NCBI GenBank assembly: GCA_018266075.1
Contig: JAFEBB010000038.1
Span: 64,001-74,095, forward strand
Direction of reading: 5' to 3'
DNA length: 10,095 bases
DNA from: Deltaproteobacteria bacterium
GTDB taxonomy: Bacteria > Myxococcota > Myxococcia > Myxococcales > SZAS-1
The notes below the pieces were generated by a model. It was not told where the DNA came from, did not search any database, and saw nothing but the letters and a program-made list of their open reading frames with translations. Shown here piece by piece: positions 42-10,095 of the stretch (positions are counted from its first letter, which is position 1; each line of letters begins with the position of its first letter). The position numbers were made by a program, and so were the translations under genes.

Positions 42-2135
42 TTAATGCGCAGGCACGTCGGCCGGGCCCTCGAGGGTCACGGCGAGGATGCGATCGCCTT
101 CGACCAACTGGTCGGCGACCTCCATGCCCGAGATGACGTCGGCGAAGATGGTGTAGCGGCCCTCCAGGTGCGGCTGCGGCGTGAGGGTGATGAAGAACTG
201 CGAGCCGCCGGTGTCCTTGCCGGCGAGCGCCATGCCCACCGCGCCGCGCACATAGCGCGAGCCGTCGATCTCGCAGGGGATCGAGTAGCCCGGACCGCCC
301 GCGCCGTCGCCGCGGGGATCGCCGCCTTGCACCACGAAGCCCGGCACCACGCGATGGAAGGTCAGCTGGTCGAAGTAGCCGCGCTCGGCCAGGTCGGCGA
401 AGTTCTCCGCGGTGAAGCTGCCCGCGTGCAGCCGCATGCGGATCTCGCCGCGGCTGGTAGCGATGCGGGCCACCTTCTCGCCCTGCAGCCGCTGCAGATG
501 GAAGTCGAGCGGCTCGGGCTCGCCTTGCGGCAGCGGCGCGCCGAGCGTCTTCAGCGCGTCGCGCGCGCCCGCGCGAACCGTGGCCCGCGAGTCGAGCGCG
601 AAGCGCGTGGCGGCCTTCGCATCCAGCGCCTTCAGCGACGCGAGGTGGCCCAGCACCGTGGCCACCGAGTCGTGCTGCTCGTTCACCGACGCGACGGTCA
701 GCGCGCGCACCAGATCCGGCACCGCGTCTTTCAGAGCCAGCTTGCCGGCGGCGTCCGCGGCGGAGAGCGTGACGCCCCAGTCGGCGCTGCGCAGATCGCG
801 GAGCACGCGCGTGCGCACCTCGGGCGCGTCGACCTTGGCCTCGCCGAGCGCGTCGTCCACGGCGCCCTGGGCACCCGCGCTCCACACCGCGCGCGCGAGC
901 AGCGCCTTCACCTTCACGGGCGGCTGCGCCTCCGAGTCGCCGAGGGTGCGCACCGCGAGCGCCTCACGCCACGCGGCCTGGTCGATCGTCGCGGGACACT
1001 TGTCGATGGCCGGCGTGGTCCCATCCGTGCGCGTGCGATCCGCGGCTGCGGCGAGGTAGCACCCGACGACACCGCGAACGAGCGCGTCCTCGTTGCCCTT
1101 GGCCGCCGGCAGCGACTCCGACGCCTTGCTCAGATCCGCCGCCAGAAACGCGGGCAGCTTCTCCTGCGCGATCGCGAGCACGGGCATGGCGCTCTCGCCG
1201 TGCGCGGGATCGAACCCCGCGAGCACCTCCTTCAACGCGGTCTGCACGATGGCCTTCTCGGGGCACGTCGCGTCCTTGCAGCGGCCCACGCGCTTGGCCA
1301 GCGAGCGCGCGCTCTCCACGCGCACGTCGAGCTCGGGATCCTTGAGCCGCTCCACGAGGTAGTTCGCATCTGGAACCGCCGTGCCGTCCGCGAGGCCGCG
1401 CGCGCACACCGCGCGCACGCGCGCGTCCGAGTCCTTCAAGCCGAAGACCAGCGCCGGCTGCGCCTCGGGCTTCTTGCTGCGCATCAGCGCGTAGCCCGCG
1501 GCGTAGCGAACGTCGGCATCGGCGTCGTGCGCGAGCAGCGAGCCCAGGGGATCGATCGCGCCCTTGTCCGGAGACGCCCCCTTGGTCGCGTACGCGAGCA
1601 GCCCCAGCGACTGCGCGGCCGCGCGACGCACCTTCGCCTCCGGATCGCCGAGCGCGCCGATGAGCGCGGGCGCACCCTCGGGCTGGCCGAGCTTGCCCAG
1701 CGCGTCGTCGAGGGCCACGCGCGCGTCGGGATTGGCGGCGTTCGGCAGCGCGCCCAGCACGGCCGTGGTGAGCTTGGCGAGCTGGGGCTTCTCCAGCGGC
1801 TGCCAGGAGAGCCCGAGCTGTCCCGCCGCAAAGGCCGCAGGGATCACGTCGCGCGTGCTGGCGAGCTCGGCGGCCACCGCGTCCACCGTCTCCGGACGCT
1901 GAAGTCGAGCGACCACGTCCAGCGCACGCCGTCGGAGGTGAGCGTCGCTCGAAGAGACCAGCGCCACGAGCTCCACGTCGCCGCTCTTGAGCGTGCGGTG
2001 CGATTCCATCTCGTCGAGGCGCTCCAGCGGCGACGGGCCCGGAGGCGCCAGCGCCGCCTGCGGGGACACCGGGGTGGGGGGCTCGTCCGTGACACATGCC
2101 GAGATGGCCAGGAGCAGCAGCGCCGCACGCTTCAT
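42..2135 (-). CDS. Lipoprotein with HEAT/PBS-lyase-like repeats and a C-terminal cyclophilin-type peptidyl-prolyl cis-trans isomerase domain (697 aa)
   Basis: The gene is the 3' part of the 42..3326 minus ORF. An in-frame ATG at 2133-2135 follows a perfect GGAGG 5 nt upstream (plus-strand cctcc, 2141-2145). The N-terminus MKRAALLLLAISAC is a signal peptide with a lipobox Cys. Repeated D(P/A)xxxVRxxAAxxLG motifs are typical of HEAT/PBS-lyase repeats. The C-terminal roughly 165 aa carries cyclophilin hallmarks FHRVVPGFVVQGGDP, GAVGMA and GGSQFFITL. Stop TAA at 42-44. GC3 is high throughout. Confidence 0.8.
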   Translation of the reverse strand: MKRAALLLLAISACVTDEPPTPVSPQAALAPPGPSPLERLDEMESHRTLKSGDVELVALVSSSDAHLRRRALDVVARLQRPETVDAVAAELASTRDVIPAAFAAGQLGLSWQPLEKPQLAKLTTAVLGALPNAANPDARVALDDALGKLGQPEGAPALIGALGDPEAKVRRAAAQSLGLLAYATKGASPDKGAIDPLGSLLAHDADADVRYAAGYALMRSKKPEAQPALVFGLKDSDARVRAVCARGLADGTAVPDANYLVERLKDPELDVRVESARSLAKRVGRCKDATCPEKAIVQTALKEVLAGFDPAHGESAMPVLAIAQEKLPAFLAADLSKASESLPAAKGNEDALVRGVVGCYLAAAADRTRTDGTTPAIDKCPATIDQAAWREALAVRTLGDSEAQPPVKVKALLARAVWSAGAQGAVDDALGEAKVDAPEVRTRVLRDLRSADWGVTLSAADAAGKLALKDAVPDLVRALTVASVNEQHDSVATVLGHLASLKALDAKAATRFALDSRATVRAGARDALKTLGAPLPQGEPEPLDFHLQRLQGEKVARIATSRGEIRMRLHAGSFTAENFADLAERGYFDQLTFHRVVPGFVVQGGDPRGDGAGGPGYSIPCEIDGSRYVRGAVGMALAGKDTGGSQFFITLTPQPHLEGRYTIFADVISGMEVADQLVEGDRILAVTLEGPADVPAH

Positions 2136-2145: not shown

Positions 2146-2190
2146 ATGGGGCGCCCGACTCTGGCACAGCCCCGGGCCGGGGTGGAGTCG

Positions 2191-2219
2191 TTGACTGCGC
2201 TCGGACCCGCGCCAATACT
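2191..2219 (+). promoter_or_regulatory. Putative sigma-70-type promoter (-35 TTGACT, 17-bp spacer, -10 AATACT) for the zinc-ribbon membrane protein gene
   Basis: TTGACT at 2191-2196 and AATACT at 2214-2219 sit inside the 132-bp divergent intergenic region 2136-2267. Identified by eye only. Confidence 0.3.
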
Positions 2220-2267
2220 CGCGGAGACGCACTGCCGCGCGCCCGCGCGCCCAGCGAGGCGGAAACC

Positions 2268-3470
2268 TTGCGCTGCTCCAACTGTTCGTCGGTCATCTTC
2301 GACGGTACGAACGTCTGCCCGAGCTGCGGCGCGGTCAACGACCTCGACGAGCTCAACCGCCAGGGCGGCTTCTCCGGCACCGAGGCCAATCGCCAGCCGC
2401 TGCCCGATCCCACGGTGGACCGCGCCGACACGGGCGAGCACGAGGAGCCACTCGACACCCAGGAGATCTCGCAGCGCTCGGTGAAGCGCGCGGTCTCCGA
2501 GGCGACGTCCCAGCTTCCGCCGGTGCCGGAGCCGAGCGGCCCCAACCGGCGCGACGCCCTCCGCAGCAAGATGGGCGCGCCCCGGCCGGCCATGGCTCCC
2601 GCGCCCGACGACGCCACCGCCATCGGCGAGCCCACCGAGCCGCCCGCCCGCGCCACGAGCAGCCCGCGGAGCGCCCGACCGGACACGGCCGAAGACCTGC
2701 CTGCCGCCAGCGAACCGCGGCCCACGCGCGAGGCGCGCGGCCTCTCGGGCCCGAAGAAGAAGGCCGGCAAGCCCGCGCGGCCGCGCATGGAGACCGAGCC
2801 GGCCACGGAGGAGGACGTCCCGAACCGCGCGCGCAAGGTGGACCGCATGGCCGCCGAGCCGCTCCACCAGGACTCGAAGGTGGCGCCGCCGAAGTCGTCG
2901 GGCAAGTACGCCTCGGTGAAGGACGACCGCGAGGCCGAGATGACCATGGCCCGGCCGGAGCTTCAGAAGAACGAGGCCGCCGCGCCGCCGCCGGTGAACC
3001 CGGACGAGCTCGCCCAGGCCGCGATGCGCGCGTTCAAGCAGATGGGCTTCGAGGACCGCCTCGAGTCCATCTCCGCGATCGTGATGCTGATGCTGACCTT
3101 CATGCCCTGGCGCTCGGTCCGCGGCGAGAGCGACATCGGCCTGGCCACCGGCGCGGGCTTCATGAGCCTCATCTTCGCGGCGGGCGTGCTCGGGCTGGTC
3201 TATCTGCGCATCACCGGCCGCGTGCCCACGCTGCCCGCGAAGATGTTGAGCCAGGCGGAGCTCGGGCTGAGCGCGCTGCAGGTGCCGATCACGCTGATCT
3301 TCATCTTCTCCAACATCGATCGGCACCAGACGCAGTACGGCTCGCTGGCGACCTACGCGTCGATGCCGGACTTCGGCTCGATTCTCTCGATGGTGGCGAA
3401 CTTCGCGCTGTGTGCGGGCGCCGCGCTGGTGATGCAGCGCGAGAGTCGCAGCGTGTCATCGCGACGTTAG
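2268..3470 (+). CDS. Zinc-ribbon domain membrane protein (about 400 aa): N-terminal CxxC-N13-CxxC zinc ribbon, long disordered Pro/Ala/Glu/Arg-rich linker, C-terminal 3-4 helix membrane domain
   Basis: It is the 3' part of the 45..3470 plus ORF, and GC3 becomes high only from about 2230. There is no in-frame ATG or GTG. TTG at 2268 is preceded by AGGCGG 6 nt upstream and gives MRCSNCSSVIFDGTNVCPSCG; CTG at 2232 is an alternative start. Hydrophobic helices include ISAIVMLMLTFMPW, FMSLIFAAGVLGLVYLRI, LQVPITLIFIFSNI and ILSMVANFALCAGAALVM. Stop TAG at 3468-3470. Confidence 0.6.
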   Translation: MRCSNCSSVIFDGTNVCPSCGAVNDLDELNRQGGFSGTEANRQPLPDPTVDRADTGEHEEPLDTQEISQRSVKRAVSEATSQLPPVPEPSGPNRRDALRSKMGAPRPAMAPAPDDATAIGEPTEPPARATSSPRSARPDTAEDLPAASEPRPTREARGLSGPKKKAGKPARPRMETEPATEEDVPNRARKVDRMAAEPLHQDSKVAPPKSSGKYASVKDDREAEMTMARPELQKNEAAAPPPVNPDELAQAAMRAFKQMGFEDRLESISAIVMLMLTFMPWRSVRGESDIGLATGAGFMSLIFAAGVLGLVYLRITGRVPTLPAKMLSQAELGLSALQVPITLIFIFSNIDRHQTQYGSLATYASMPDFGSILSMVANFALCAGAALVMQRESRSVSSRR

Positions 3471-4813
3471 TTCTTGCACCCGCCCGCCCCCGCGCCCGGC
3501 GCAGTGGGCGGCGTGAGATCGCGCTCGCAGGAGAAGTCGAAGAGATCGAGCAGCGCGTCGCTGTTGGCATCGCGCGCGGTGAGCGCGGGCAGGTCGAACA
3601 CGGTCTCGATGAAGCGCGTGATCGCCGTGTGGTCGTGCACCACGTGCGAGACGTAGTGCCGCTTGGCCCACGGTGAGATGGCGACGAGCGGCACACGCGG
3701 CCCAAATCCCGTGAACGGCGAGTCCGACGGCGCGGCCTGACATCCGCTCGGCGGCGGCACGTGGTCGGCGAAGCTGCCGGCCTCGTCGTAGGTGTAGATG
3801 ATCGCCAGCCGCTGCCACTCTGGGCTCGACGCCGCGTGGTCGTAGATCTTCTTCAGCCACGCCTCGCCCACCTGCACGTCAGCGGGCGGGTGGTCGTCTT
3901 GCACATTGTCCAGGCCGTCGACGAAGACCACATTCGGCAGCGTCCCGTTGTCGAGCGCCGTCAGCAGCTCGTTGAACGGATGCACACCGGGGTCGTCGGC
4001 GTCCCAGCCGAGCGAGCCGCTGAAGGGTGAGCCGTCGGTGTAGACGCCCCAGGTGAAGCCGGCGGCCATCAGCGTCTGGAAGATCGAGGTGGTGCTCGGC
4101 GGCGGGAAGGTGATGCCCGTGTCGATGACGCCCGCGTTGGTTCCAAACAGTAGGAAATTGCGATTGGCGAATGTGCCGCTCTGCATGGGCGCGAAGTGCC
4201 GATCGCTGAGCGCGAAGGTATTTGCGAGCCAGTAATAGAAAGGGAAATCGCTGCTGTCGTATTCGCCCATGGCGAAGTGGCCGTCGGTCTCGGTGGAGAT
4301 GGCCGCGTTCTTCACGAAGCCGCCCATCGTGCCGCCTGCAATCTCGGAGACGACCGCGGCGCTCTGGTGATCGGGATCAGTCTGAACGCACGTCGTGTCG
4401 AGGTGGAACGGCGACACCGGGTTGCCCTTGAGATCGAGATTCACGAAGTCTGCGGGCACCGGCTCGGAGTCGGGCTGGCCTTCGTGGTTCAAGTTCCCGA
4501 AGAGGTGGTCGTAGCTGCGGTTCTCCTTCATCGCGATGATGATGTGGCGAATCGGAAGTGCCGTGGAGACCGTCGAAGGAATGCCCAGCGACTCCGACGG
4601 GTGCGCGCCCGCGGTGAAGGCACACGCCGCGCGCTGCGACTGAAGGGTGTCGGGCGGAATTTGTAAGTTACAAGTAAATGGCGCGTCGACCGGCGTGGTC
4701 ATCTTGTTGATGCCATCCAGGCCCCAGCTGGCCTCTTGCAGGTATCCCGCGCACGCGCCAGTGCTCACGAGGAGCACGAGGGCGATGACCAGTCTGCGAG
4801 TCCGCGCGCTCAT
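3467..4813 (-). CDS. Phosphoesterase-family lipoprotein (non-haemolytic phospholipase C / acid phosphatase AcpA-like), 448 aa
   Basis: It is the 3' part of the 3467..5479 minus ORF and starts at the ATG at 4811-4813. The signal peptide MSARTRRLVIALVLLVSTGAC has a lipobox-like Cys. The phosphoesterase signature IIAMKENRSYDHLFG is present, with further family motifs downstream. Stop TAA at 3467-3469 overlaps the TAG of the convergent plus-strand gene. Confidence 0.85.
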   Translation of the reverse strand: MSARTRRLVIALVLLVSTGACAGYLQEASWGLDGINKMTTPVDAPFTCNLQIPPDTLQSQRAACAFTAGAHPSESLGIPSTVSTALPIRHIIIAMKENRSYDHLFGNLNHEGQPDSEPVPADFVNLDLKGNPVSPFHLDTTCVQTDPDHQSAAVVSEIAGGTMGGFVKNAAISTETDGHFAMGEYDSSDFPFYYWLANTFALSDRHFAPMQSGTFANRNFLLFGTNAGVIDTGITFPPPSTTSIFQTLMAAGFTWGVYTDGSPFSGSLGWDADDPGVHPFNELLTALDNGTLPNVVFVDGLDNVQDDHPPADVQVGEAWLKKIYDHAASSPEWQRLAIIYTYDEAGSFADHVPPPSGCQAAPSDSPFTGFGPRVPLVAISPWAKRHYVSHVVHDHTAITRFIETVFDLPALTARDANSDALLDLFDFSCERDLTPPTAPGAGAGGCKN

Positions 4814-5751
4814 GGCCTCGCCATCCCCACCGCCACAAGCCCTGCGCCGTCGATGGGCGCCGACGTGTGGTACACGAGCGCCGCCCCTGGGAACGACGCG
4901 GTGTGCTCGTCGTCCGAGATGTGAGCCTCGACCGCCAGCCACATTCGCGAGCCGAGCCGCATGCGCAAGGCCCCCGACGCCGCCATGTAGATGGAGCGAT
5001 TGACCGAGTGGAAGTGTCGATCGGTCTCCTCGCGGTTGCTGCCGTAGAGGCCCTCGAGGGTAATCAACAATCCATTCGACAGTGTGTAACTGCCGCCGAA
5101 GCCGAGCTCGTTGTAGGCAACGCCAGAAGGCAGCGTGGGCGGCGTGCGGAAGTCCTCCTGAAGAAACGCGCCGGCGACCAGGCTTCGGCTGAGCTGCATC
5201 CACGAGCCGCCGAGCGTCACGCGCCCCGCGATCGAGCCGTTCACGCCGGCCTCGCCCGCAACGTTGTTCACGCGGTCGTAGCCGCGCAGCGGGACGTTGG
5301 TGACGGCCAGCGCCTGGATGCCGCCTTTCGCACCGAAGCCGATGTACGGGCTCCAGTCGTTGTCGGGCAGCACGCGCAGGCCGAGCTCGCCGCTCCCCGC
5401 GCCGCTGCCGCCCACGATGGGCTCCGGCGTGTACGAGTTGGCAATGAGCCCCGCCGACGGCCCGAGGCTCGCGGTCCACTGCGTGAGCACGCGGTGCGAG
5501 AGGAAGCTGCGCGAACCCCAGACATCGCCGCTGGCCTGGGTGAGCGCCGCGTAGCCAAAGGCGGCGGTCTCGACGGAGAGCGAGAGCGCCAGCCCGTGCT
5601 CGGAAGCCTTGAACTCGGTCTCCGTCGGCAGGGTGTCCGGAACGAGCGTCTCGTCCGCGTTCACGGACAGCGGGTCTGTGGCGGGCGCCTCATCCGCGCG
5701 CGCGGGCGCGGCGACGAGCAGCAAGACAATCGTAAGAAATGCGCGGCGCAC
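4810..5751 (-). CDS. Secreted Gly/Ser-rich protein, probable outer-membrane beta-barrel (313 aa)
   Basis: It is the 3' part of the 4810..7797 minus ORF; the remainder of that ORF overlaps prfC in another frame and is a shadow. GTG at 5749-5751 gives MRRAFLTIVLLLVAAPARA|DEAP, a classic signal peptide with an AxA cleavage site. Alternating hydrophobic/polar stretches rich in G, S and Y are consistent with beta-strands. Stop TGA at 4810-4812 overlaps the ATG of the phosphoesterase gene as ATGA. Confidence 0.6.
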   Translation of the reverse strand: MRRAFLTIVLLLVAAPARADEAPATDPLSVNADETLVPDTLPTETEFKASEHGLALSLSVETAAFGYAALTQASGDVWGSRSFLSHRVLTQWTASLGPSAGLIANSYTPEPIVGGSGAGSGELGLRVLPDNDWSPYIGFGAKGGIQALAVTNVPLRGYDRVNNVAGEAGVNGSIAGRVTLGGSWMQLSRSLVAGAFLQEDFRTPPTLPSGVAYNELGFGGSYTLSNGLLITLEGLYGSNREETDRHFHSVNRSIYMAASGALRMRLGSRMWLAVEAHISDDEHTASFPGAALVYHTSAPIDGAGLVAVGMARP

Positions 5752-5798
5752 GGCGGCTCGCGAGTGTGCGCCGGTCGATCGTGCTTTGCAACGGCAGG

Positions 5799-7418
5799 TC
5801 AGGCCTTGGCGGTCGCGCGCGGCGCGGTCTCCAGGAACTCCACGTTCTTCGCGCGGTCCTGGGCGTAGCGCAGGCTGAACTCGTTGCGGAAGAGCACCAC
5901 CGGCAGCTCGTCGCGATCGAGGACGACCATGCTCGTGTCGCCGAACTCGTAGTCGAGGGCCTTGAACGCCTCGCCCTTCGGCCAGCGCGCCACCGTGAAC
6001 GGCAAGCGGACGAGGTTCGCCTTCACGCTGTACTCGTGCTCGAGCCGATAGCTGAGCACTTCGAACTGCAGCTGTCCGACGGCGCCCACGATCGGCTCCA
6101 CATCTCCCAGCCCGGGGCGCTTGAAGAGCTGGATGGCGCCCTCTTCCGTGAGCTGCTCCAGGCCCTTCTTGAGCTGCTTGCGCTTGAGGGCGTCTTTGAT
6201 TTCGACGCGCGCGAAGAGCTCCGGCAAGAACCGCGGGAAGCCGGTGAACTCGAACGGCTCGCCCACGCACAGCGTGTCGCCGATGCGGAACATGCCGGGA
6301 TCGAAGAGGCCGACCACGTCGCCGGCGAAAGCCTCGTCCACGGCCTTGCGCTCCTGGGCCATGAACTGCTGCGGCTTGGCGAGGCGGATCTCGCGCTCCA
6401 TGCGCACGTGGCGCGCGTCCATGCCGCCGGTGAAGCGCCCGCTGCAGATGCGCATGAACGCGATGCGATCGCGGTGCGCGGGATCCATGTTCGCCTGGAT
6501 CTTGAAGATGAAGCCCGAGAACTTGGGCGACTCCGGCTCGACGGTACCCGACGCGGTCGCGCGCGCGAGCGGCGGCGGCGCGAGGGTCATGAAGCTTTCG
6601 AGGAAGGGCTGCACGCCGAAGTTGTTCATGGCGCTGCCGAAGTACATGGGCGAGAGCTCGCCCTTCTTGATGCGCTCCACGTCGAAGGTGTCGCCGGCGA
6701 TGTCGAGGAGCTCGAGCTCTTCCTTCAGCTTCGCGAGCGCGGTCTCGCCGAGCGCGGCCACGATCTTGGGATCGTCGAGCTCGCCGGGGATCGACGTGGT
6801 CTTCGCTTCTTCGGCGCCGTGCTCCACGGCCTCGAAGAGGTGCAGCACCTTGGCGTGCCGGTCGTAGACGCCGCGGAACTCCTTGCCCATGCCGATGGGC
6901 CAGTTCATGGGCGTGCTGCGGATGCCGAGCACGCGCTCGATCTCGTCCATGAGATCCAGCGGCGGCTTGCCATAGCGGTCGAGCTTGTTGACGAAGGTGA
7001 AGATCGGAATCCCGCGCTGCCTGCAGACCTTGAAGAGCTTGATGGTCTGGGCCTCGACGCCCTTCGCCGTGTCGATGAGCATCACCGCGGAGTCGGCGGC
7101 GAGGAGGGTGCGGTAGGTGTCCTCGCTGAAGTCCTGGTGGCCGGGCGTATCGAGGATGTTGATCTTCTTGCCGGCGTAGTCGAACTGCATCACCGAGCTG
7201 GTGATGGAGATTCCGCGCTGCTTCTCCAGCTCCATCCAGTCGCTGGTGGCGTGGCGCGCGGCCTTGCGGGCCTTCACGCTGCCGGCCAGGTGGATCGCGC
7301 CGCCGTAGAGGAGGAGCTTCTCGGTGAGCGTCGTCTTGCCCGCGTCGGGGTGCGAGATGATGGCGAAGGTGCGCCGCTTGTGGACTTCGGCGGGCAGGCG
7401 CTCGAGCTGGGGATCCAT
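5799..7418 (-). CDS. prfC: Peptide chain release factor 3 (RF3), translational GTPase, 539 aa
   Basis: The protein aligns by eye along its whole length with E. coli RF3. Matches include RTFAIISHPDAGKTTLTEKLLL, ATSDWMELEKQRGISITSSVMQF, INILDTPGHQDFSEDTYRTL, NKLDR, FKIQANMDPAHRDRIAFMR and GAVGQLQFEVL. Start ATG at 7416-7418, stop TGA at 5799-5801. Confidence 0.95.
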   Translation of the reverse strand: MDPQLERLPAEVHKRRTFAIISHPDAGKTTLTEKLLLYGGAIHLAGSVKARKAARHATSDWMELEKQRGISITSSVMQFDYAGKKINILDTPGHQDFSEDTYRTLLAADSAVMLIDTAKGVEAQTIKLFKVCRQRGIPIFTFVNKLDRYGKPPLDLMDEIERVLGIRSTPMNWPIGMGKEFRGVYDRHAKVLHLFEAVEHGAEEAKTTSIPGELDDPKIVAALGETALAKLKEELELLDIAGDTFDVERIKKGELSPMYFGSAMNNFGVQPFLESFMTLAPPPLARATASGTVEPESPKFSGFIFKIQANMDPAHRDRIAFMRICSGRFTGGMDARHVRMEREIRLAKPQQFMAQERKAVDEAFAGDVVGLFDPGMFRIGDTLCVGEPFEFTGFPRFLPELFARVEIKDALKRKQLKKGLEQLTEEGAIQLFKRPGLGDVEPIVGAVGQLQFEVLSYRLEHEYSVKANLVRLPFTVARWPKGEAFKALDYEFGDTSMVVLDRDELPVVLFRNEFSLRYAQDRAKNVEFLETAPRATAKA

Positions 7419-7540
7419 GGGGCGAGCGGATAGTCGTGCGCGGGGGCAGTGTCAACCCGCTGCGGACGCTCACGGTCGTGGCCGCCCGACGGTCGGTGCT
7501 GCGGGGCCGTAGGGCGCTGTGCGTGATGCGCAGAGCCACC

Positions 7541-7560
7541 GTTCGAGCGCGCGCTTGAAC
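7541..7560. other. 20-bp near-perfect palindrome gttcgagcgc|gcgcttgaac immediately 3' of the C39-like peptidase stop codon; possible GC-rich terminator hairpin or operator
   Basis: The inverted repeat has one mismatch and lies 2 nt downstream (on the minus strand) of the TGA at 7563-7565. No U-tract follows. It sits in the 144-bp spacer between the peptidase stop and the prfC start. Confidence 0.3.
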
Positions 7561-7562
7561 GA

Positions 7563-8237
7563 TCAGTACATTCGCGCGGGTGCTCTGGGATAGGTCGTCA
7601 TCGCCCGGTCGCCGCCGAAGAAGATCGACAGCTCGTGAAGCTCGACCCTGCCCCCGTCGATGTCTTCGTAGTCGTGCCACCGGTCCGGCAGCTCGCTCAG
7701 CGGAACATACGCATAGCCGCCCGCGGTCGCCGGATCCATCACGTACAGCCGCTCGGCGTCCAGACCCACCACCACGACGAAGTGACCGTCTTCCCACGCG
7801 TCACGCCACCGCACGTGAGCGGGATCGTCGGTCCACGCCTGCAGGTCCACGATCACCGGATCCCGGCGCGCGAGCGACGCTCGAATCTGCTCGATCGTCG
7901 AGTGCTCCTCCATGTTCGCCTGCAAGCCGAACTCGCGGGCCACTGCCGCGATGCGCGCTGCATGCGTTCCGTCGTGCTCGGTGCTGCCCAGCCGCTCGCC
8001 GAGGGCAATCTCGCGGCCGTCGTAGCGCTGGTAGTAGTAGAGGACACTCATCAGGGCGGCTGCACCGCAGGTGTAGTCGGTGGCCTGGCGCACGAGCGGG
8101 ACAGGAAGCAGCGCGGGTGAGGTCGCACGGGGCTCGCAGTCCGTGAAGCCGAGCGAAACGAGGACCGCCGCGCACGCGGCCGCAAGGGCCCCGTATCGAC
8201 GGGCCGGGCGAAGGGTGGCTGAGGCCGGAGTGTGCAT
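7563..8237 (-). CDS. Secreted stand-alone C39-like (papain-fold) cysteine peptidase, 224 aa
   Basis: ATG at 8235-8237 gives a signal peptide MHTPASATLRPARRYGALAAACAAVLVSLGF. The catalytic motifs are all present: QATDYTCGAAAL (Gln and Cys), GHFVVVVGLD (His) and YVMDPA (Asp). The longer 7563..8303 start variant would add a non-signal N-terminal extension. Stop TGA at 7563-7565. Confidence 0.8.
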   Translation of the reverse strand: MHTPASATLRPARRYGALAAACAAVLVSLGFTDCEPRATSPALLPVPLVRQATDYTCGAAALMSVLYYYQRYDGREIALGERLGSTEHDGTHAARIAAVAREFGLQANMEEHSTIEQIRASLARRDPVIVDLQAWTDDPAHVRWRDAWEDGHFVVVVGLDAERLYVMDPATAGGYAYVPLSELPDRWHDYEDIDGGRVELHELSIFFGGDRAMTTYPRAPARMY

Positions 8238-8296
8238 TGCCGCCTTCTCCCTCACGCCGTGGCGCTCAGCGGCGCCAGCCGACTGGCATCTTACCC

Positions 8297-8326
8297 GCTG
8301 CATTCCGCGGCGATGGTCGATGCAGC
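8297..8326. promoter_or_regulatory. Inverted repeat GCTGCAT-N16-ATGCAGC in the divergent peptidase/activator intergenic region; candidate operator or upstream activator site
   Basis: Perfect 7-bp arms at 8297-8303 and 8320-8326, seen directly in the sequence. Confidence 0.25.
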
Positions 8327-8367: not shown

Positions 8368-8385
8368 CTTGCTTGCAGCCGTACC

Positions 8386-8392
8386 CGGGGGA
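8386..8392 (+). promoter_or_regulatory. Shine-Dalgarno GGGGGAG for the activator gene
   Basis: GGGGGAG ends 3 nt before the ATG at 8396. This favours ATG 8396 over the in-frame TTG at 8369 used by the ORF track. Confidence 0.45.
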
Positions 8393-8395
8393 GCC

Positions 8396-9796
8396 ATGGC
8401 CGCGCCATTCGAACCGCAGCCCTCCACCCTCAACGAGGACCGCCCTCGCCTCCGCGGCGGCAAGGGCCTCCGGATCCGGGCCGTGGGTGCTGAAACCCAA
8501 TTCATCGCGCTCACGCGTCCGTACCTCCTGGTCGGCTCCTCTGACGCGTGTGGCCTCCGCCTTCACGACAGGTTTGTCTCCCGCCGGCACCTCGAGATCT
8601 CCGTCTCATCCGAGGGCGTGGCGGTGAAGCTCGTCAGCATGACGAACGGGATGCTCCTCCTCGCCGAGGGAGGCATTTCCACGGGCTCCCACGTCACGGA
8701 GGTGAGCTTCTGGGGTGTGGGGAGCGGGATCCGCATCGGCAAGACGGTGCTCTGGCTCGAGTACGAGCCTGAGGAGTCCGAGCGCCGCCGCGACCTCTTT
8801 GGTCTCATCGGCGATGACGCGGCGATCGACCGCGTGCGCCAGGACATCGTCACCTGGAGCGCCGACAGGTTCCGGGTGCTCATCCACGGCGAGAGCGGTT
8901 CGGGCAAGGAGCTGGTGGCGCGCGGGCTCCACGACCGGTCGCCGCGACACGAGAACCATTTCATCGCCCGAAATTGCGCCACCCTCGTCGGCTCCATGCT
9001 CGAGGACGACCTCTTTGGGCACGTGAAGAACGCCTTCACCGGCGCGGTCCGCGAGCGCAAAGGAGCCTTTGAGCTGGCCGACCGGTGCACCCTCTTCCTC
9101 GACGAGATCGGCGAGCTGCCACCGGAGACGCAGGTCAAGCTGCTCCGCGTGCTGGAGACCGGCGAGGTCTTCCCGGTGGGCTCGAGCACGCCCATCAAGG
9201 TCGACGTCCGCCTCATCTGCGCGTCGCACCGCGACCTGCGCAAGATGGTGAAGGAGGGGAAGTTCCGCGAGGACCTCTACCACCGCATCGCGGACGTGAC
9301 GATCGAGGTCCCGCCGCTGCGCGAGCGCCCCGGCGACATCCCGCTGCTGGTGCGCCACTACACCTCGATGCAGCCCAATGGCGGAGGCGTGGGCTGGACC
9401 CCGCGGGCGATGGAGATGATGCAGGAGCACCCGTTCACCGGGAACGTGCGCGAGCTCATCAGCGCGGTGAAGTGCGCCGTGCAGCTCGCCACGGGCGGCT
9501 TCGTGGAGCCGGAGCACCTCCGGCGGATCCTGAAGGACATGGCGACGGACGAGAGCTCGAACGACACCGTCGGCGTCCGAGCCAAGCCGTTGAAGGCGGT
9601 CATCCGCGAAACCATCGTCAAGAGCATCCGGCGGAATGGCGGCAACAAGAACGCCGCCGCGCGCGAGCTCAAGACCAGCCGCAGCGTCCTCACGCCGATT
9701 GACCCCGACCATGAGCTCGAGGACAGCGAGTCGAGCGAGAAGCGCCCGAAGTCGAGCGACCAGACGCGCGACCCGAGCAAGAAGCGCCGTCGGTAG
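8396..9796 (+). CDS. Sigma-54-dependent transcriptional activator (bacterial enhancer-binding protein) with an N-terminal FHA domain, 466 aa
   Basis: The FHA motifs are GSSDACGLRLHDRFVSRRHLEI. The sigma-54 AAA+ domain shows Walker A GESGSGKE, a GAFTGA-like loop FGHVKNAFTGA, Walker B CTLFLDEIGEL and an arginine finger region NVRELISAV. A C-terminal Fis-type HTH reads RRNGGNKNAAARELKTSRSVL, followed by a basic tail. Stop TAG at 9794-9796. Confidence 0.9.
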   Translation: MAAPFEPQPSTLNEDRPRLRGGKGLRIRAVGAETQFIALTRPYLLVGSSDACGLRLHDRFVSRRHLEISVSSEGVAVKLVSMTNGMLLLAEGGISTGSHVTEVSFWGVGSGIRIGKTVLWLEYEPEESERRRDLFGLIGDDAAIDRVRQDIVTWSADRFRVLIHGESGSGKELVARGLHDRSPRHENHFIARNCATLVGSMLEDDLFGHVKNAFTGAVRERKGAFELADRCTLFLDEIGELPPETQVKLLRVLETGEVFPVGSSTPIKVDVRLICASHRDLRKMVKEGKFREDLYHRIADVTIEVPPLRERPGDIPLLVRHYTSMQPNGGGVGWTPRAMEMMQEHPFTGNVRELISAVKCAVQLATGGFVEPEHLRRILKDMATDESSNDTVGVRAKPLKAVIRETIVKSIRRNGGNKNAAARELKTSRSVLTPIDPDHELEDSESSEKRPKSSDQTRDPSKKRRR

Positions 9797-9877: not shown

Positions 9878-10095
9878 GTGATCTTCGGGGGTGCGTGGCT
9901 CGCTATCAAAGGCCCGCGGCTCATCGCGAAGAGCTCAATCTCGATCGAACAGAACCCGATCTTGCTCACCCAGGACGGGTTCCCGGGCCCGAAGAACCGG
10001 CTCGTCGGCCTGATAGACCGGCTCCTCGGCCCGATGAACAGGCTCCTCGGCCCGATGAACAGGCTCGTCGGCCCGATGAACCGGCTCGTCGGCCC
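9878..10095 (+). CDS. Partial CDS (3' end beyond window): hypothetical protein with tandem heptapeptide GP(M/K)NRL(V/L) repeats
   Basis: The reading frame is the same as the activator's and stays open from its TAG to the window end, with high GC3. The other two frames have a stop in every repeat unit (frame 0) or low GC3 (frame 1, PDEQAPR). The start is uncertain: GTG at 9878 gives MIFGGAWLAIKGPRL, and CTG at 9851 and TTG at 9962 are alternatives. Unit-to-unit substitutions are synonymous (agg to cgg, Arg) or conservative (ctc to gtc, Leu/Val) in this frame. Confidence 0.45.
   Translation, partial: MIFGGAWLAIKGPRLIAKSSISIEQNPILLTQDGFPGPKNRLVGLIDRLLGPMNRLLGPMNRLVGPMNRLVG
9986..10095 (+). repeat. 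21-bp tandem direct repeat array, at least 5 units with consensus cccgatgaacaggctcgtcgg, truncated by the window edge
   Basis: The units are cccgaagaaccggctcgtcgg, cctgatagaccggctcctcgg, cccgatgaacaggctcctcgg, cccgatgaacaggctcgtcgg and cccgatgaaccggctcgtcgg, followed by ccc at the edge. There are no spacers, so this is not a CRISPR array. Confidence 0.85.

Follow-up and report, generated by a model that had tools for sequence, protein, structure and literature searches.

We analyzed a 10,095-nucleotide stretch from the assembly of a Deltaproteobacteria bacterium (GCA_018266075.1, contig JAFEBB010000038.1, positions 64,001 to 74,095), referred to below as the window. On its minus strand, a gene for a predicted 12-stranded outer membrane β-barrel immediately precedes, and overlaps, a gene for a PF04185 phosphoesterase lipoprotein. 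As judged from the sequences, the two genes are a self-contained module, in which co-translation is enforced by an invariant stop/start overlap and an embedded Shine-Dalgarno site. The window is ~69% GC, and the third-codon-position signal was sufficient for gene calling. The features of the pair are given below, with structural annotations taken from AlphaFold2 (AF2) models, for which confidence is expressed as the predicted local distance difference test (pLDDT).

4810 to 5751, minus strand: barrel protein gene, 313 amino acids (aa), with a GTG start at 5751 and a TGA stop at 4810-4812
5695 to 5751, minus strand: predicted signal peptide of the barrel, aa 1-19, MRRAFLTIVLLLVAAPARA, with cleavage before DE (sequence; N-terminal helix of low pLDDT in the model)
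5611 to 5694, minus strand: acidic Pro/Thr-rich N-terminal extension of the barrel, aa 20-47, probably disordered (pLDDT 51-57; poor conservation in the family alignment)
4819 to 5610, minus strand: twelve long antiparallel β-strands, aa 48-311 (DSSP on the AF2 model; hydrophobic/polar alternation in 64 homologues)
5248 to 5301, minus strand: loop between strands 5 and 6, aa 151-168, PLRGYDRVNNVAGEA, the sole long loop and the most conserved segment of the family
4816 to 4828, minus strand: G-rich Shine-Dalgarno-like stretch, GGGGATGGCGAGG, in the last codons of the barrel gene (sequence)
4810 to 4813, minus strand: ATGA overlap of the barrel stop and the phosphoesterase start (junction sequence)
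3467 to 4813, minus strand: PF04185 phosphoesterase lipoprotein gene, 448 aa (Pfam E = 1.8e-64; AF2 pLDDT 90.5; relatives in the PDB)
4751 to 4813, minus strand: predicted lipoprotein signal peptide and lipobox, aa 1-21, with Cys21 at 4751-4753 (sequence; invariant Cys)
4673 to 4726, minus strand: N-terminal module WGLxxIxxMxTPxDPP, aa 30-47 (W30, G31, T40, and P41 conserved)
3587 to 4552, minus strand: PF04185 catalytic domain, aa 88-409, with every motif intact
4514 to 4525, minus strand: catalytic motif ENRS
4157 to 4180, minus strand: catalytic motif SGTFANRN, which holds Thr214, the presumed nucleophile
3887 to 3898, minus strand: catalytic motif DDHP
3758 to 3790, minus strand: catalytic motif YDEAGSFADHV

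The original prediction for this locus, made from the DNA letters, had described a signal-peptide protein and a phosphoesterase lipoprotein at these positions, overlapping by ATGA, and had read them as a translationally coupled operon. Both open reading frames (ORFs) are there, the former with a classical Sec signal peptide and the latter with a signal peptide, a lipobox, and the PF04185 match; the overlap is seen at 4810-4813, where the junction reads GCG AGG CCA TGA / ATG AGC. Coupling is borne out beyond the window. An NTGA overlap (mostly ATGA, some GTGA, one TTGA) is kept in each paired locus examined, that is, at 41 of 41 homologous junctions and in 3 further loci, and GGAG, GAGG, or AGGA falls within the last codons of the barrel gene, in the same place as in the window, at 37 of the 41 junctions. 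The junction does not vary within the clade, even though its barrels share just 21 to 32% identity with one another.

The linkage was followed in a locus scan, in which the enzyme alignment served as the query against one genome per GTDB species, giving 80 loci. Almost all are labelled Myxococcota-type metagenome-assembled genomes (MAGs; Myxococcales, Polyangia, "delta proteobacterium"), and a handful bear other labels (WWE3, Binatia, Oligoflexia). The barrel gene lies directly upstream of the phosphoesterase gene in ~43 Myxococcota loci; the adjacency, which had been proposed as a check on the pair, is thus kept in related genomes. A hidden Markov model of the barrel family matches the next ORF upstream in all but a handful of the loci whose enzyme is at least ~57% identical to that of the window, and enzymes of 46 to 57% identity have no barrel gene; one locus (L025), in which the contig ends before the upstream region, was left out of this scoring. 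The closest barrel relative lies on a soil contig with different flanks, and a sequence coding for the N-terminus of a lipoprotein homologue comes next, overlapping it by 4 nucleotides. Three look-ups of enzyme homologues each showed a protein of ~295 aa, with no Pfam match, ending 4 nucleotides past the enzyme start, and look-ups begun from three barrel proteins arrived each time at a PF04185 gene downstream, with NTGA. No third conserved gene was found across the loci, the remaining clusters being antisense ORF artefacts; the flanks differ completely from locus to locus, and only the two genes are common. Dependence is asymmetric, in that the enzyme occurs without the barrel, and no barrel was found without the enzyme in the scan loci or the three barrel look-ups. 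The earlier suggestion that the barrel is dedicated to the phosphoesterase is upheld by these observations.

A neighbor-joining tree of the catalytic domains groups the barrel-linked enzymes in one clade; two barrel-less loci, L017 and L043, are basal to it, and L035 is nested within it as a barrel loss. On the simplest history, the barrel was gained once and strictly kept thereafter. Most of the barrel-less enzymes of 46 to 57% identity carry linkers of 20 to 70 residues, in which Gly, Ser, Asp, Ala, and Pro are frequent, in place of the short tether and WGL..TP.DPP module of the window enzyme. The module is older than the barrel, being carried by L038, L039, and L071, barrel-less members of the sister group.

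Further copies and repeats were seen at some of these loci. A second, more distant PF04185 paralogue without a barrel gene lies a few kilobases from the first, or right after it, in L003 (10855-12360) and L068 (~6364-7942); L003 and L031 share one contig. The Polyangiaceae MAG JBGANF01 has two close phosphoesterase copies of the barrel clade on different contigs (L025, L026), one paired with a barrel and the other cut by the contig end. In the closest homologous pair, on a soil metagenome contig (L001), a 42-bp tandem repeat of ~12 copies occupies 608-1122, ~500 bp upstream of the barrel gene, and gene calling had read it, on the other strand, as a "gene" of 239 aa.

The 313-aa barrel protein is identical to the NCBI MAG protein JST54_22290, annotated "Deltaproteobacteria bacterium." Neither as a single sequence nor as a 64-member profile did it match Pfam, NCBIfam, or PDB sequences. 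A word-indexed protein search returned the protein itself and one relative of 62% identity, and the profile version returned 4 proteins; an exhaustive HMMER search gave 82 family clusters of ~280 to 330 aa, with 21 to 32% identity to the window protein. With the family alignment as input, AF2 produced a model with a pLDDT of 88.7 and a predicted template modeling (pTM) score of 0.81, comprising 12 strands of 14 to 20 residues. The strands have an amphipathic pattern, alternating hydrophobic and polar residues, across 64 homologues, and their connections are very short on both sides except for one conserved loop of 18 residues, which joins strands 5 and 6. In this loop, N162 and G166 are ~90% conserved, and a short helix is modeled at 158-161; the loop sequence is identical in the window protein and P0002. 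Under the usual topology rule the loop is putatively extracellular. The lumen is Gly- and Ser-rich. The protein has a Sec signal peptide and an even count of strands, which are long, antiparallel, and amphipathic, as expected of an integral outer membrane barrel, and the original guess of a β-barrel proved right at the level of the fold. According to the model, the upstream gene product is a 12-stranded outer membrane β-barrel of a family without annotation.

The phosphoesterase begins with MSARTRRLVIALVLLVSTGA followed by C, with the lipobox LVSTGA directly before Cys21, a sequence that fits bacterial lipoproteins and predicts acylation; Cys21 is invariant in two homologue sets (n = 28 and n = 66). 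Export by the twin-arginine translocation (Tat) pathway was considered for the window protein, which has TRRLVI, and was ruled out by the lack of conservation of the twin arginine in the family. The PF04185 match is full length (profile positions 1-356 of 356; 218.6 bits versus a cut-off of 23). The motifs ENRSxDH (metal site), GTxxNR (Thr/Ser nucleophile), DDHP, and YDExGxFxDHV are invariant in the 28 and 66 homologues and align with the same motifs of PDB entry 8yk5. Thr214 aligns to the position that we take to be the nucleophile of solved phospholipases C (PLCs). Judged by its motifs, the phosphoesterase should be catalytically intact.

A Foldseek search with the phosphoesterase model identified NPC4 (plant), RePLC (fungal), PlcN and PlcH (P. 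aeruginosa), GPE-EP (the Streptomyces glycerophosphoethanolamine phosphodiesterase), and AcpA (Francisella), with a probability of 1.00 and TM-scores of 0.62 to 0.67; these matches take in enzymes active on soluble phosphoesters. Although the characterized enzymes PlcH/PlcN, NPC4, AcpA, and GPE-EP (Streptomyces) share the PF04185 catalytic domain and motifs, identity is ~24%, and the window enzyme is a short-tether lipoprotein that has no C-terminal extra domain. PlcH has an overlapping accessory gene, plcR; in the window, the accessory gene instead encodes an upstream outer membrane barrel, not a downstream chaperone. Six Cys residues besides Cys21 are conserved (C48, C64, C142, C358, C429, and C446), which implies oxidative folding in the periplasm, outside the cytoplasm. 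Low pLDDT is confined to residues 21-30, residues 31-50 score ~95, and the chain packs on the domain from W30; the lipid anchor would therefore lie just ~8 to 9 residues from the globular enzyme.

The barrel and the phosphoesterase are very likely made in fixed proportion and would act as a 1:1 complex in the outer membrane. As to mechanism, we tentatively prefer an obligate arrangement, possible rather than probable, in which the enzyme sits on the periplasmic face beneath a dedicated small phosphoester channel. The phosphoesterase would fold and form its disulfides in the periplasm and then be inserted by the Lol pathway into the outer membrane, in the inner leaflet. The tether of ~8 to 9 residues would keep it flush on the membrane where the barrel opens to the periplasm. 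The barrel would be a small solute channel dedicated to the enzyme and would deliver phosphoester substrates to the enzyme or clear its products, and the role of the pair would be to scavenge phosphate or lipid head groups. A channel with a docked enzyme is suggested by the disulfide-rich folded domain, the absence of a periplasmic translocon domain, the narrow 12-stranded pore, and the relatives that act on soluble phosphoesters, and by analogy with PcoB and PcoA and with the 12-stranded channels Tsx and NanC/KdgM and their catabolic enzymes.

PcoB, a copper-resistance protein, is always accompanied by the periplasmic enzyme PcoA, which can occur alone, and PcoB/CopB, like the window protein, has 12 strands and an N-terminal part that is disordered, and is encoded beside a periplasmic enzyme (PMC9210255). 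The window pair and its homologues show the same asymmetry. The two pairs differ in that the partner in the window is a lipoprotein phosphoesterase, whereas PcoA is a Tat-exported multicopper oxidase, and in that the barrel gene precedes the enzyme gene in the window, the opposite of the pco order; the window barrel has neither a sequence match to the CopB model nor a Met/His-rich, metal-binding N-terminal tail, and does not belong with CopB/PcoB. Tsx and NanC/KdgM are small channels encoded with enzymes that use the imported solute; to our knowledge, these channels are not translationally coupled to a lipoprotein. The window barrel has no sequence similarity to them, and in contrast to them its loops are very short, bar the one that is conserved, and its lumen is not basic. 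As modeled, it resembles PcoB, Tsx, NanC, and autotransporter β-domains in fold only.

Several findings weigh against a dedicated phosphoester channel with a docked phosphoesterase. The barrel lacks the C-terminal aromatic β-signal, the final residue being P, R, or K in 47 of 64 members. After its last strand (..YGFxLG..) come 2 to 4 tail residues, whose codons contain the Shine-Dalgarno site and the start codon of the phosphoesterase gene, and the embedded Shine-Dalgarno site accounts for the odd C-terminal tails of the family (..LWR.., final P/R/K), which have no terminal aromatic. The lumen is not net positive, with a mean of 9.7 Arg/Lys versus 13.2 Asp/Glu, and is therefore unlike that of an OprP-type phosphate/anion channel; an arginine-ladder anion channel was ruled out on the same ground. 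The strand 5-6 loop, the best-conserved barrel segment, would if extracellular be as compatible with an interface at the surface as with a constriction inside the lumen. The WGL..TP.DPP module was ruled out as a barrel-specific docking element, as it is present in barrel-less L017, L038, L039, L043, and L071. On the enzyme side, the model of phosphocholine-specific PLCs of the PlcH/PlcN type (TIGR03396) gave 148.7 bits versus a cut-off of 580.25 and aligned only over profile positions 39-354 of 688, the C-terminal domain being absent from the window phosphoesterase; the model of Burkholderia-type acid phosphatases (TIGR03397) gave 105.2 bits versus a cut-off of 362.75. By its sequence, the window enzyme is assigned to PF04185 and to neither curated subfamily.

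The main rival is surface display, in which the barrel would be a dedicated translocon or anchor, Slam-like or split-autotransporter-like, that places the lipoprotein on the cell surface or on outer membrane vesicles, where the enzyme would attack prey or environmental phospholipids. The host organisms are Myxococcota, many of which are predators, and the barrel-first gene order, the strict coupling, the conserved loop on the putative extracellular side, the Gly/Ser-rich lumen, and autotransporter-like fold matches would all suit such a role; we nevertheless consider it rather unlikely. Slam translocon genes are reported to adjoin the genes of their cargo lipoproteins, which were discovered through this adjacency (PMC5449769, PMC9090332). 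Slam (type XI secretion, DUF560) thus resembles the window pair in having an outer membrane barrel gene beside the gene of the lipoprotein it serves. The Slam barrel, however, has 14 strands and a periplasmic TPR domain, whereas the window barrel has 12 strands and, instead of a periplasmic TPR or POTRA-like domain, just a disordered tail of ~28 residues; none of the 64 family members matches any Pfam model, the DUF560/Slam and Autotransporter models included. In type Va autotransporter esterases and lipases (EstA), a hydrolase is likewise associated with a 12-stranded barrel; in the window, by contrast, the hydrolase is a polypeptide of its own, apart from the barrel. It carries a lipid anchor, is Cys-rich, and has no lumen-filling linker, its tether of ~8 to 9 residues being too short for threading a barrel. 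A compact domain of ~45 kDa with six conserved Cys residues would, moreover, be hard to pass through a 12-stranded pore. For the surface anchoring suggested in the original prediction, the conserved Cys residues and the short tether are, if anything, unfavorable. Outer membrane barrels are functionally tied to a specific lipoprotein in LptD-LptE and RcsF-OmpA/C/F as well. LptD has 26 strands, with LptE inside as a plug, and a long linker of RcsF passes through a porin, which has 16 strands; the modeled 12-stranded lumen, in contrast, could not hold a 45-kDa domain, and RcsF-like threading was ruled out by the short distance between the lipidated Cys and the well-modeled domain. Improbable, too, is a reading in which the barrel family, with 12 strands and no periplasmic domain, would be a minimal device of a new type that assembles a surface lipoprotein or exposes it, dedicated to one phosphoesterase cargo in Myxococcota and unrelated to Slam, LptDE-mediated sorting, and type V secretion.

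The very short tether, which would set the active domain on the bilayer, and the nearest folds, which are the non-specific phospholipases C NPC4, RePLC, and PlcN, could also be read as signs of lipid remodeling. The membrane-hugging enzyme would then cleave head groups from the cell's own outer membrane phospholipids, for example in phosphate limitation or to keep up lipid asymmetry, and the barrel would give access to lipid or sense the membrane, as do PagP, PldA, LpxR, and MlaA-OmpC. This seems decidedly improbable: no catalytic-type constellation of conserved His, Ser, and Asp was identified in the barrel, and the long flexible linkers of the barrel-less relatives argue against a general need to sit on the cell's own membrane.

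A separate question is the origin of the pair, for which the original prediction had proposed horizontal acquisition, citing atypical codon usage. We compared codon usage in the pair with that of the five neighboring genes within the window and with homologous loci, using third-position GC content (GC3), an index akin to the codon adaptation index (CAI) that was computed leave-one-out, and Fisher tests of AT-ending codons against the pooled flanks.

3467 to 4813, minus strand: phosphoesterase (PLC-type) gene; GC3 0.862, AT-ending codons 13.6% (p = 3e-4 versus 8.0% in the flanks), CAI-like index 0.635
4810 to 5751, minus strand: barrel gene; GC3 0.885, AT-ending codons 11.2% (p = 0.06, not significant), CAI-like index 0.617
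from 42, minus strand: HEAT-repeat/cyclophilin protein gene; GC3 0.918, AT-ending codons 8.0%, CAI-like index 0.741
~2190 to 3470, plus strand: Zn-ribbon/membrane protein gene; GC3 0.937, AT-ending codons 6.1%, CAI-like index 0.751
5799 to 7418, minus strand: prfC; GC3 0.950, AT-ending codons 4.8%, CAI-like index 0.819
7563 to 8303, minus strand: C39-like peptidase gene; GC3 0.827, AT-ending codons 17.0% (p = 3e-6), CAI-like index 0.527
8369 to 9796, plus strand: FHA-sigma-54 activator gene; GC3 0.912, AT-ending codons 8.9%, CAI-like index 0.652
4658 to 4680, minus strand: AT-ending codon run CCA TTT ACT TGT AAC TTA CAA ATT (sequence)
~5055 to 5091, minus strand: AT-ending codon run AGT TAC ACA CTG TCG AAT GGA TTG TTG ATT (sequence)

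Part of the claim stands. The two AT-ending runs it quoted are both present, low-GC3 patches are scattered from ~4050 to 5220, the phosphoesterase gene is enriched in AT-ending codons over the pooled flanks, and the pair lies at the low end of the window in GC3 and CAI-like index. The pair is nevertheless inside the range of the window: the barrel gene by itself is not significantly different, the CAI-like value of the sigma-54 activator gene is the same as that of the pair, and the C39-like peptidase gene, outside the flagged pair, has the most deviant codon usage of all. Across 38 homologous loci the GC3 of the pair tracks that of the host (0.72 to 0.985) and falls below the flanks in just 7; elsewhere the pair is fully matched to its host, usually at or above its flanks. 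In 39 other loci, no GC3 dip comparable to that at 4658-4680 was found at the same position, and the run there is specific to the window; nor did these loci show a dip centered on the junction, which had been considered as a general feature of coupling. Recent horizontal acquisition would be in keeping with the modularity of the pair, whose flanks differ in every genome, and with the pair-versus-flank GC3 deficit of the window, the largest among the 38 loci (0.883 versus 0.933). This deficit is modest, however, and exceeded by a neighbor, no close donor was found (identity to the nearest relatives is 62% for the barrel and 66 to 68% for the enzyme), and no mobile-element genes, tRNA, or repeats were found beside the pair in the window; we regard recent acquisition as very unlikely. 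The mild codon deviation is real, but other genes of the window span the same range, and it does not diagnose transfer; the slightly lowered GC3 is best taken as local noise or weak expression bias rather than as the mark of a recent transfer. When a high-GC gene contains a few AT-ending codons, this says little for horizontal transfer.

The remainder of the window yielded several side observations. The phosphoesterase gene and the convergent Zn-ribbon gene overlap at their stop codons (TAA at 3467-3469 on the minus strand and TAG at 3468-3470 on the plus strand), which leaves no intergenic room for terminators, and no terminator-like site was found at this overlap (3467-3470). A scan of 3200-6100 for promoters and terminators gave no signal exceeding the level of shuffled sequence, and an Rfam scan of the whole window gave no match. 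Between 2400 and 2900, GC reaches 0.77 to 0.79 with a strong positive AT skew of 0.4 to 0.59; this stretch coincides with the long Pro/Ala/Glu/Arg-rich region of the Zn-ribbon/membrane protein, which is probably disordered. The apparent N-terminus of the HEAT-repeat/cyclophilin protein, MKRAALLLLAISAC (~2040-2110, minus strand), resembles a lipoprotein signal, and this too may be a lipid-anchored envelope protein. The C39-like peptidase and FHA-sigma-54 activator genes are divergently transcribed, and downstream of the latter a 21-bp tandem repeat, GGCCCGATGAACCGGCTCGTC (5.2 copies, 87% matches), spans 9986-10095 and runs to the end of the window.

A literature search for a PLC-barrel pair in myxobacteria found nothing relevant; barrel-lipoprotein partnerships are known, and the partnership in the window and its barrel family appear to be undescribed. 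A dedicated barrel for one lipoprotein enzyme would add to a short list that comprises LptDE, Slam, RcsF-porin, and PcoAB-like pairs, here in a phylum in which the cell envelope has received little study, and would give the unannotated family of 82 clusters its first functional context. The clade with a barrel and a short tether offers a natural comparison with the barrel-less relatives, mostly with long linkers, from which the positioning of lipoprotein enzymes at the outer membrane could be learned. An export function of the barrel would mean that proteins have a further, new way of reaching the cell surface; were the barrel a channel, the pair would be a new organophosphate-scavenging module.

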